Notes under the pieces: generated by a model
Database searches by the model: none
Told to the model about the DNA's origin: nothing
Seen by the model: only the letters and a program-made list of their open reading frames with translations
Assembly: GCF_024502345.1 (NCBI RefSeq)
Contig: NZ_JALDNN010000001.1
Length of the DNA: 64,000 nt
Strand: one strand, 5' to 3'
DNA from: Escherichia coli
Lineage (GTDB): Bacteria > Pseudomonadota > Gammaproteobacteria > Enterobacterales > Enterobacteriaceae
Shown here: piece after piece, positions 19,025 through 20,806 of the stretch
Position numbering within the stretch: position 1 is the stretch's first letter
Layout: each line of letters starts with the position of its first letter
Translations under genes and position numbers: made by a program

Positions 19025-20806
19025 TTATCTCCTGTAGTGAATCTCATCGTGTAGTCTGGGGGTAACAATTCGTAAATTATCAATATCGTATACGCTGCCG
19101 CCATATTCAATTGCAACACGATGATGTATCTGGAATTTTTTAACTATTTCTTTAGGGCCATAATGCCAACCGTCAATAGGTGCTTTTGCGGTTAATCCTT
19201 GTTTTATACGTGTTTGGTTACCACTTGAAAACTGCGCTATCAACTCCGGATCCTGACTCACCTCCAGCCACAGCGCCTCGCGAAACTCATCAAAGGTTTT
19301 AAACTCCCGTCCGCGCAATTTATCAGCAATATGCGCCGGGATTGGCGCGCCGTTGCCGTTATTGGATACCGACATATCCAGCCAGCGAGTTCCTGATGAA
19401 AGCGGGACGCCGCGCCCTGTTACAACACCAGGCAGCTTTCGCGGATCCTCCTTCAGGTAAACATAGATGGGCTTAATACCGGATCCCGCCGGAAAAACCA
19501 GAATATAATCGTTGAATTCTTTCGGATCAGGAACCGGGAATGGCGGCGTGGTATAGGTATCTGTACCGTCCGGAATCGGCGTCACCAGAATGGTGGGCTG
19601 ATCCAGCGGCGGCCTGTCGTTACCGGTATGGCCCGGAACATTCCCATGTTCCGGATTTTCCGGCGTCCAGGTAATCAGGGGGCCATCGACATCGTGAGCG
19701 GGGGTAAATTCATAACGCTGCGTCTGCTCGTTCCACTGCATGTTCGCCACGCGGACTTTTTCATACGGCGTACCTTCACCCGTATGAACACCATACACCT
19801 GAGGCTTGCCGTGAATATCAGTTCCCCAGAAAAAACGTACCCGGGTGGTGGCGGTACTGCCTGCTAGTGCTTTCTGCCGCAGTTCTTCCTCATACCAGAA
19901 CTCATCACGTCCGGGCACGCGAGCACTGCCCTCGCCCGCAGAGGGAATATACAAAGCAGATGCCAACGCACCGATGTAAGAGCCTCGGGTTGCACTGAGT
20001 ATGCCACTGAGCGACCATTTTCCCCATATTTGAGCCGCCAACACACTACCCGGAAACAGTAGCATGGTTTGAGCTTCTGCGGGTTGCCCGACATCGTTAG
20101 CCTCGGGATGGTGGTATCCACAGCAGTCATCAACCACTGGCTGAGCAAAAATCGCTACTTGACCGAAGTTTTCAGCGGGTTCTTCTGCCGTTCCAGCATC
20201 TGTACATCCCTTCTCCTTCAGACAGGATTTGGCATAGACCGGGTTAACCGCTGGTGAAGAGAGTGGAAGGTTAACAACTGGTAGAGGTTCAGGCTTAAGA
20301 TTACTGGCAGGTGGGCTTTTAGGCGGAATAAATAAGCTATTATAGCCAGCAGGAAAGGTCAACCAGTCAAATTCCGTATTGGCTATTAGATGTTTACATA
20401 ATATGTAGTGATAATCGACAGTTACACATTCGGTAGGAAGATTATTGTCAGAAATGTTTACATGAATAGCAGTTAATGAAGCATTTCTTAGCTGAATATA
20501 ATAATACCGTTCCCAGCGCCCGCTTTTATTTATACGATACAAATCGATTTCAATAAATAACCGCTCATTCTGATTGATGGCATTAGACAGTAGCGGTGAG
20601 CTTTTATCAATGAGTTTGCAAAATTGTAGCCCCTGTAGATTAACGCCATTACCAGTACTGGTAATGGCGTTGGTGAGTGCAAAGGCAAAAATTTCATCTT
20701 CATGGCCAACCTGCCAGCGATTACCAACCGACGCATACGTCCCACAGCCTGAAGAAATATCGCCCTGCTTCTCACCGATTATTCTCAGGTAAACAATATC
20801 GCTCAC
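19025..20806 (-). CDS. Hcp-fused polymorphic toxin: N-terminal Hcp (T6SS tube protein) domain, central linker, C-terminal colicin E7/E9-type HNH DNase domain (593 aa)
   Basis: N-terminus VSDIVYLRIIGEKQGDISSGC ... KLIDKSSPLL resembles Hcp/TssD; C-terminus APIPAHIADKLRGREFKTFDEFREALWLEVSQDPEL ... IHHRVAIEYGGSVYDIDNLRIVTPRLHDEIH is near-collinear with colicin E9 DNase incl. HNH motif; GTG start. Confidence 0.85.
   Translation of the reverse strand: MSDIVYLRIIGEKQGDISSGCGTYASVGNRWQVGHEDEIFAFALTNAITSTGNGVNLQGLQFCKLIDKSSPLLSNAINQNERLFIEIDLYRINKSGRWERYYYIQLRNASLTAIHVNISDNNLPTECVTVDYHYILCKHLIANTEFDWLTFPAGYNSLFIPPKSPPASNLKPEPLPVVNLPLSSPAVNPVYAKSCLKEKGCTDAGTAEEPAENFGQVAIFAQPVVDDCCGYHHPEANDVGQPAEAQTMLLFPGSVLAAQIWGKWSLSGILSATRGSYIGALASALYIPSAGEGSARVPGRDEFWYEEELRQKALAGSTATTRVRFFWGTDIHGKPQVYGVHTGEGTPYEKVRVANMQWNEQTQRYEFTPAHDVDGPLITWTPENPEHGNVPGHTGNDRPPLDQPTILVTPIPDGTDTYTTPPFPVPDPKEFNDYILVFPAGSGIKPIYVYLKEDPRKLPGVVTGRGVPLSSGTRWLDMSVSNNGNGAPIPAHIADKLRGREFKTFDEFREALWLEVSQDPELIAQFSSGNQTRIKQGLTAKAPIDGWHYGPKEIVKKFQIHHRVAIEYGGSVYDIDNLRIVTPRLHDEIHYRR

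Follow-up and report, generated by a model that had tools for sequence, protein, structure and literature searches.

The usp locus in an Escherichia coli contig: a probable type VI secretion tube subunit carrying a colicin-type DNase, beside an array of immunity genes

A 64,000-nt stretch of an Escherichia coli genome (RefSeq assembly GCF_024502345.1, contig NZ_JALDNN010000001.1; hereafter the window) includes a single open reading frame (ORF) at positions 19025 to 20806 on the minus strand, which consists of 593 codons and a stop codon and begins with a GTG start; the plus strand over the same interval contains stops throughout. The ORF is the usp gene, whose product is known as the uropathogenic specific protein, alias Hcp-ET3-4, and it lies within the island PAIusp. 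The initial annotation of the window, made from its letters, had predicted a 593-residue ORF here, with no strand given, as a fusion of an Hcp tube protein with a colicin E9-like HNH DNase, followed by an immunity gene, and this organisation is supported by profile matches, structure matches and the literature on Usp. Three points go beyond that annotation, namely the identity of the protein as Usp, a Pyocin_S domain in its middle part, and an array of orphan cassettes past the immunity gene. It is proposed, with a probability of about 85%, that Usp is a specialised ('evolved') tube subunit of a type VI secretion system (T6SS) that carries its own nuclease toxin and is accompanied by the immunity genes of PAIusp. 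The gene and the parts of its product, including an inner-membrane translocation (IMT) domain and the segment preceding it, are located as follows; predicted local distance difference test scores are abbreviated pLDDT.

19025..20806, minus strand: usp (hcp-ET3-4), the complete gene (domain matches; comparison with strain UTI89)
20357..20806, minus strand: Hcp (TssD) tube-protein domain, residues 1 to ~150 (TIGR03344; PDB 6a2v; AlphaFold2 and Foldseek)
20252..20356, minus strand: proline-rich linker, residues ~151–185, PPKSPPASNLKPEPLPVVNLPLSSP (read from the sequence)
19883..20251, minus strand: conserved pre-IMT segment, residues ~186–308 (alignment of 43 sequences; common to VgrG- and PAAR-fused relatives)
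19457..19882, minus strand: Pyocin_S / IMT domain, residues 309–450 (PF06958; PDB 3mfb; function from work on pyocin G)
19034..19429, minus strand: colicin/pyocin HNH DNase domain, residues 460–591 (PF21431; DNase matches in the PDB; AlphaFold2 pLDDT 70–96)

The N-terminal part of Usp matched the NCBIfam model for Hcp, TIGR03344, over residues 1–146 with a score of 124.7 bits, which passes the curated cutoff of 58.9 and agrees with the earlier placement of Hcp at residues 1 to ~160. The Pfam model T6SS_HCP (PF05638) aligned to residues 28–139 (1.5e-12), and the PDB sequence matches included the Hcp structures 6a2v (E 2.4e-15), 3he1 and 5mxn. An AlphaFold2 model of residues 1–156 was of moderate confidence (pLDDT 65, predicted TM score 0.60), and the top 13 structures retrieved with it from the PDB by Foldseek were all Hcp (6a2v, 5mxn, 3he1, 4hkh), with TM scores of 0.57–0.66 and E values down to 2.6e-10. 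The modelled fold of the N-terminus is therefore the Hcp β-barrel; a different fold at this place, which according to the initial annotation would have argued against the fusion, was not seen among the best matches. Homology to the VgrG- and PAAR-fused relatives of Usp starts only past the proline-rich linker that follows the Hcp domain.

In the C-terminal part, the Pfam family Col-Pyo_DNase (PF21431) aligned over its entire length (model positions 1–124 of 124) to residues 460–591 with an E value of 5.9e-42, as expected from the DNase predicted there. The DNase matches in the PDB were klebicin G at 3e-39 and pyocin AP41, colicins E9, E2 and E7, and pyocins S2 and S8 at 1e-27 to 3e-31. The HNH motif, encoded at 19037–19126, consists of H561, H562, N577, H586 and H590 in the exact HH-x14-N-x8-H-x3-H spacing that had been noted, and it is conserved in the alignments of Usp to ColE9 and AP41. 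The motifs quoted in the initial annotation, MSDIVYLRIIGEKQGDISSGC and LIDKSSPLL for Hcp and APIPAHIADKLRGREFKTFDEFREALWLEVSQDPEL and IHH...YDIDNLRIVTPRLHDEIH for the DNase, were all found, and the domain matches are far stronger than chance would give.

The middle ~300 residues had been thought to belong to no recognisable family, and this part of the annotation has to be revised. Directly upstream of the nuclease domain, residues 309–450 are matched by the whole of the Pfam family Pyocin_S (PF06958; 1e-40, model positions 1–139 of 139), and PDB entry 3mfb, the structure of an S-type pyocin domain, matched residues 307–452 (E 7.7e-18). The Pyocin_S domain is the IMT domain of nuclease bacteriocins, as shown for pyocin G by Atanaskovic et al. 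(PMC9040868); of the T6SS effectors of the colicin-DNase type in SecReT6, 97.6% had the domain in their analysis, and Usp was named among them. By analogy, the domain is predicted to serve inner-membrane translocation in Usp, a process that depends on FtsH in pyocin G.

A further section of the middle part, the pre-IMT segment, is conserved in the effectors built on VgrG and PAAR. It contains PVYAKSCLKEKGCTDAG, DDCCGY, four near-invariant cysteines (Cys195, 201, 228 and 229) and a hydrophobic stretch rich in Gly, Ala and Ser at residues 248–292, and has many invariant columns among the 43 aligned sequences. The family is narrow, with just 39 representatives recovered among 1.84 billion proteins by an exhaustive HMMER search; when homologs of the middle segment were sought by a word-indexed search, the matches were for the most part fragments. 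There is no Pfam family, no functional annotation among the homologs found and no confident structure prediction for this segment. It is known solely from nuclease effectors fused to Hcp, VgrG or PAAR and was not found in released bacteriocins, the alignment to klebicin G starting at residue 373; hence the segment may, as a tentative suggestion, be an uncharacterised module specific to the T6SS. One possibility is a membrane-insertion element that would be activated in the periplasm by disulfide formation and would replace the TonB- or Tol-dependent step of bacteriocin import.

Aligned from residue ~186 to the C-terminus, Usp shows 56% identity to the C-terminal extension of P0106, a VgrG protein, and 48% to the one in P0121, a PAAR protein. 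In database searches this cargo was seen on three carriers, namely Hcp (Escherichia, Salmonella, Citrobacter, Kluyvera and Superficieibacter), VgrG, and PAAR (Pectobacterium and Lonsdalea). The cargo is thus portable, a module that fits each of three needle components, and its fusion to Hcp, VgrG and PAAR therefore gives independent support for delivery by the T6SS.

Usp has been studied previously. Parret and De Mot recognised its likeness to bacteriocins in 2002 (as cited in PMC2907695), and in 2009 Blondel et al. described it as an 'evolved Hcp' of 593 residues (PMC2907695). Zaw et al. (2013) reported that usp could not be maintained in an expression strain without its partner, that Usp is a non-specific nuclease, the free protein of the Z42 allele degrading DNA in vitro, and that OrfU1/Imu1 binds Usp in a tight complex and lowers its activity; the H314A/H315A and H339A substitutions in a 346-residue Usp abolished both activity and toxicity (PMC3685522). 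The 346-residue form starts at M248 of the 593-residue form, so that H314, H315 and H339 correspond to H561, H562 and H586, all of which are conserved here; DNase activity of the present allele is predicted from these residues. Toxicity with and without the immunity gene, DNase assays and HNH mutants, the checks proposed in the initial annotation, had thus largely been published in 2013 (PMC3685522). Ma et al. (2017) reported Hcp-ET3-4 as an antibacterial T6SS effector and also reported its export, as related in reviews (PMC6730261, PMC6099711).

The identity of the gene follows from comparison with other E. coli genomes. usp has been a standard virulence marker of uropathogenic (UPEC) and extraintestinal pathogenic (ExPEC) E. 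coli since 2000. In UTI89, a 1782-bp usp gene lies between aroP and pdhR and is followed by three genes annotated as 'bacteriocin immunity protein', and its product (NC_007946, 124400–126181) shares 575 of 593 residues (97%) with the Usp studied here in a gap-free alignment, leaving 18 amino-acid substitutions. The overall ratio of nonsynonymous to synonymous substitution rates (dN/dS) of usp relative to UTI89 is 0.41, calculated from only 32 substitutions, too few for a reading by domain. The best megablast matches to the usp DNA were E. coli FDAARGOS_944 and A16 (99.8% identity). Among 5426 complete E. coli genomes, megablast found usp in 1058, in every case on the chromosome and annotated as tssD, and at full length in 1057. 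From its position and description, UTI89_RS00600 is inferred to be UTI89_C0121, the locus that a review (PMC6730261) equates with the antibacterial Hcp-ET3-4 of Ma et al. (2017) and describes as having three immunity genes downstream.

On the side of the usp 3' end lie immunity genes and fragments of usp itself:

18738..19022, minus strand: imu1 (orfU1), cognate immunity gene of the colicin DNase type, 94 residues (PF01320; Im homologs; comparison with UTI89)
18331..18570, minus strand: orphan usp 3' fragment, cassette 2 (DNA alignment and translation; weak match to the VPA1263 DNase model)
18040..18330, minus strand: imu2 (orfU2) copy a, 96 residues (ORF list, alignment)
17633..17872, minus strand: orphan usp 3' fragment of cassette 3, which repeats cassette 2 in tandem (repeat and DNA alignment)
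17342..17632, minus strand: imu2 (orfU2) copy b, protein identical to that of copy a (ORF list, alignment)
16987..17175, minus strand: orphan usp 3' fragment, cassette 4, with HH changed to YH and an in-frame TAA after DIDN
16650..16933, minus strand: imu3 (orfU3), frameshifted immunity gene (comparison with UTI89 and FDAARGOS_944 DNA; three-frame translation)

imu1 starts 2 nt past the usp stop codon. Its product matched PF01320 at 8.1e-30 and, among PDB sequences, Im7, Im9 and the AP41 immunity protein with E values of 1e-15 to 2.5e-20; it is identical to the UTI89 protein. Downstream of imu1 there are three repeat units of ~698 bp, each consisting of a usp 3' fragment with an immunity gene directly after it. 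As shown by DNA alignment, all of the orphan fragments start exactly at the W513 codon (TGGCTGGAGGTGAGTCAG). Cassettes 2 and 3 have Asp at the position of H561 and lack H586 and H590 owing to the deletion of 1 bp after NLR. UTI89 carries orphan fragments with the same kind of lesions, which indicates that the fragments are old relics. The immunity genes beside these degenerate fragments are mostly intact.

The imu2 cassette is tandemly duplicated (17239–18634) with a period of 698 bp and 98% DNA identity over a 300-nt repeat, so that the window has four immunity genes as compared with three in UTI89 and FDAARGOS_944. In imu3, AAAATATAAAATAT is reduced to AAAATAT by deletion of one unit of a 7-bp direct repeat, which causes a frameshift at about codon 6; what remains is a 78-residue ORF from an internal Met, at 16650–16886. 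The two changes together might represent dosage compensation. Among the Imu proteins, DLI(F/Y)YP (the helix III motif DLIFYP) is conserved and the C-terminal tails are near-identical, only the last residue differing, and the alignment places their divergence in the region that matches helix II of Im7 and Im9. In colicin DNase–Im pairs, helix II sets specificity.

The guanine-plus-cytosine (GC) content of usp is mosaic, at 0.40 in the Hcp part, 0.52–0.565 over residues 151–512 and 0.416 over residues 513–593, which suggests that three or more sources contributed to the assembly of the gene. The fall from 0.565 to 0.416 occurs at residue 513, where the homology to the orphan cassettes starts; the GC content of the immunity array is ~0.35. 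Since the orphan fragments start at the W513 codon and the GC content drops there, replacement of the toxin tip is indicated, and the break fits repeated swapping of the tip along with an immunity gene.

The island and the promoter that serves usp were placed as follows:

16385..21213, borders approximate, minus strand: PAIusp (blastn of the K-12 aroP–pdhR intergenic region; GC content; gene order)
21240..21270, minus strand: divergent aroP P3 promoter, with the −10 hexamer TGGTAT at 21245–21240 (read from the sequence)

Blastn homology to K-12 reaches from the pdhR side as far as 16384 and from the aroP side as far as 21214–21297, and ~4.8 kb of DNA in the window stands in place of ~0.2 kb of K-12 aroP–pdhR intergenic DNA. 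The island is flanked by aceE and pdhR at one end and by aroP at the other; the GC content of the flanking genes is 0.52–0.57 as compared with 0.29–0.40 at the island edges. PAIusp was previously located between aroP and pdhR (PMC7142922), and the order aroP–usp–imu–pdhR is the same in FDAARGOS_944 and UTI89. The insertion at this site, the 593-residue ortholog and the downstream imu1–3 set that mark PAIusp were all found here, imu1 being intact, imu2 present twice, and imu3 present but frameshifted. No joined match to the whole island with four immunity genes (compared over 16230–21380) was found among the 5426 complete E. coli genomes, the best reaching 95.9%; size variants of the island were published by Nakano (2001) and Kurazono (2003), as cited in PMC2907695.

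[quoted passage not shown] (2020), in whose work the −10 hexamer TGGTAT was mutated to TTAATG (PMC7142922). The same TGGTAT hexamer is conserved in the window. Between P3 and usp there is an AT-rich leader of ~430 nt (GC content 0.29) that ends at 20807. A generic scan of promoters and terminators gave no more sites than in shuffled sequence, and its result was not used.

On the far side of aroP, between aroP and ampE, the plus strand at 22916–25272 encodes a sugar:cation symporter of the GPH family (468 residues) and a GH43 glycoside hydrolase (316 residues). This pair is also present in FDAARGOS_944 and is absent from UTI89, in which ampE abuts aroP; it is a second small variable islet beside PAIusp.

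The following course of events would account for the locus. Expression of usp would be activated by TyrR together with aromatic amino acids and repressed by H-NS, as described in the literature. In the producer, Imu1 would keep the C-terminal HNH DNase inactive, in line with the published in vitro work on Usp. The Hcp domain would ride on the T6SS tube and be fired into a neighbouring Gram-negative cell, as its homology and the report on Hcp-ET3/4 related in reviews suggest. In the periplasm of the target, to judge from the homologous pyocin G and colicins, the Pyocin_S/IMT domain, possibly aided by the cysteine-bearing pre-IMT segment, would move the DNase across the inner membrane, probably in an FtsH-dependent manner. 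The DNase would then degrade the chromosome non-specifically, this activity and its dependence on H561, H562 and H586 being known for Usp in vitro. The orphan array would be the remnant of successive replacements of the toxin tip, and the immunity genes that were kept would probably protect against related toxins of other strains.

Delivery is the weakest step of this mechanism, and several observations weigh against it or against the assignment as a whole. No other T6SS gene was found within the 64-kb window, the older literature regarded Usp as unlinked to T6SS function (PMC2907695), and evidence for its secretion is lacking according to PMC4436062. At ~48 kDa, to which the immunity protein is added, the cargo would exceed the space that an Hcp ring offers to six copies. 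A full-length AlphaFold2 model built from the 43-sequence alignment had a mean pLDDT of 45 with only the DNase region confident (70–96); it was kept out of the fold search and gives no structure for the linker or the pre-IMT segment. Of the three immunity proteins, Imu3 was reported to give the strongest protection and to bind DNA rather than Usp (PMC3917654). Genotoxicity of Usp to mammalian cells, reported by Nipic (2013) as summarised in PMC3917654, PMC4436062 and PMC7142922, points in another direction, namely that Usp is mainly a genotoxin for host cells and a virulence factor of UPEC; contact-dependent injection would then be unneeded and the bacteriocin-like architecture would be a leftover. 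The epidemiological association of usp with UPEC and ExPEC and the induction of its expression by urea, temperature and aromatic amino acids (PMC7142922) accord with such a role. However, all Usp domains have an antibacterial logic, the IMT domain being tied to crossing of the bacterial inner membrane, immunity genes of the colicin type and orphan immunity cassettes are present at the locus, and the same cargo occurs on VgrG and PAAR in Pectobacterium, Lonsdalea and Kluyvera from plants or the environment. The host-directed and antibacterial roles are not mutually exclusive and the former is a real alternative; as the main function of Usp it is considered unlikely.

If Usp were a classical bacteriocin released from the cell, as first proposed by Parret and De Mot in the work cited above, it would be taken up through an outer-membrane receptor and the Tol or Ton system, with its Hcp-like N-terminus serving in receptor binding and translocation. 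The homology of its C-terminal two thirds to klebicin G, colicin E9 and pyocins over the IMT and DNase domains is in keeping with this proposal, but the N-terminus scores above the curated Hcp cutoff and the best fold matches of its pLDDT 65 model are solely Hcp. The hallmarks of a classical colicin operon were also missing: no LexA/SOS box (CTGT-N8-ACAG, up to one mismatch) was found in the usp promoter region 20807–21383, no lysis-like lipoprotein ORF (25–80 residues with a lipobox) was found in the island by a crude test, and no colicin receptor-binding or translocation domain was detected by Pfam in Usp. As homologous cargos are moreover carried by VgrG and PAAR, release as a bacteriocin is regarded as highly improbable, marginally more so than decay of the locus. 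In the latter case usp would be an orphan Hcp fusion that is neither expressed nor secreted and is kept for the sake of its immunity genes. Its remoteness from any T6SS cluster, at least within the window, the frameshift in imu3, the degenerate orphan toxin fragments and a dN/dS that is not low, albeit derived from few substitutions, could all be read in this way. Against it, the ORF of 593 codons is intact, retains all catalytic residues and has its cognate imu1, the −10 hexamer of P3 is conserved, and usp is full length in all carriers but one; because of this integrity, a decaying relic is very unlikely. An antibacterial tube subunit with its own nuclease is thus the preferred interpretation.

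The Hcp–DNase architecture of Usp was noted between 2002 and 2009, its nuclease activity and dependence on the HNH motif were established in 2013, and an antibacterial Hcp-fused effector was reported in 2017, according to reviews. The usp locus provides a compact model for how a T6SS-delivered nuclease crosses the inner membrane of its target; the role of the IMT domain in T6SS effectors is still to be tested according to the authors who described it (PMC9040868).

Among known T6SS effectors, those built on VgrG (Salmonella arizonae SARI_02603 / VgrG-NucSe1) and PAAR (Pectobacterium ECA1669-type) share with Usp the complete cargo of pre-IMT segment, IMT domain and DNase at 48–56% identity. They differ in the carrier, which is the spike or the spike tip, or a MIX domain in other effectors, and in Usp is the tube subunit Hcp. 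With the MIX effector VPA1263 of Vibrio parahaemolyticus, Usp has the cargo alone in common, the NCBIfam model aligning to residues 199–590. Membership of the VPA1263 family (NF047924) was rejected, the score being 214.4 bits as compared with a cutoff of 900 and the match covering only model positions 375–711.

Colicins E9 and E7, pyocins S2 and AP41, and klebicin G resemble Usp in having homologous IMT and HNH DNase domains, the same catalytic motif and a homologous Im protein. In place of Hcp, these nuclease bacteriocins have a receptor-binding and translocation N-terminus, and they enter through a receptor and the Tol or Ton system, whereas Usp is encoded by a chromosomal locus and is presumed to be delivered by the T6SS.

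The organisation of orphan toxin tips with immunity genes is known from Rhs and CdiA loci (PMC4436062). As there, the usp cassettes consist of a toxin 3' end and an immunity gene, and the cassettes and the full-length gene have in common a homologous stretch, WLEVSQ.PELIAQF, which could mediate recombination. Unlike the Rhs and CdiA modules, the orphan tips of usp share the fold of the resident tip, to which they are ~75–90% identical, and all are degenerate, the first His of the HNH motif being gone and each being interrupted by a frameshift or stop. Their appearance is that of displaced relics and not of a usable reservoir.

The closest known system is PAIusp of UTI89, which shares with the window the insertion site between aroP and pdhR, the 593-residue length and three-domain architecture of Usp, the exact Imu1 sequence and the −10 hexamer of the promoter. 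The two islands differ in the immunity array, the tandem duplication of the imu2 cassette giving four immunity genes in the window and three in UTI89, and imu3 being frameshifted in the window by the 7-bp deletion. The locus is therefore an already known toxin–immunity island, to which the window adds small strain-level variation only.

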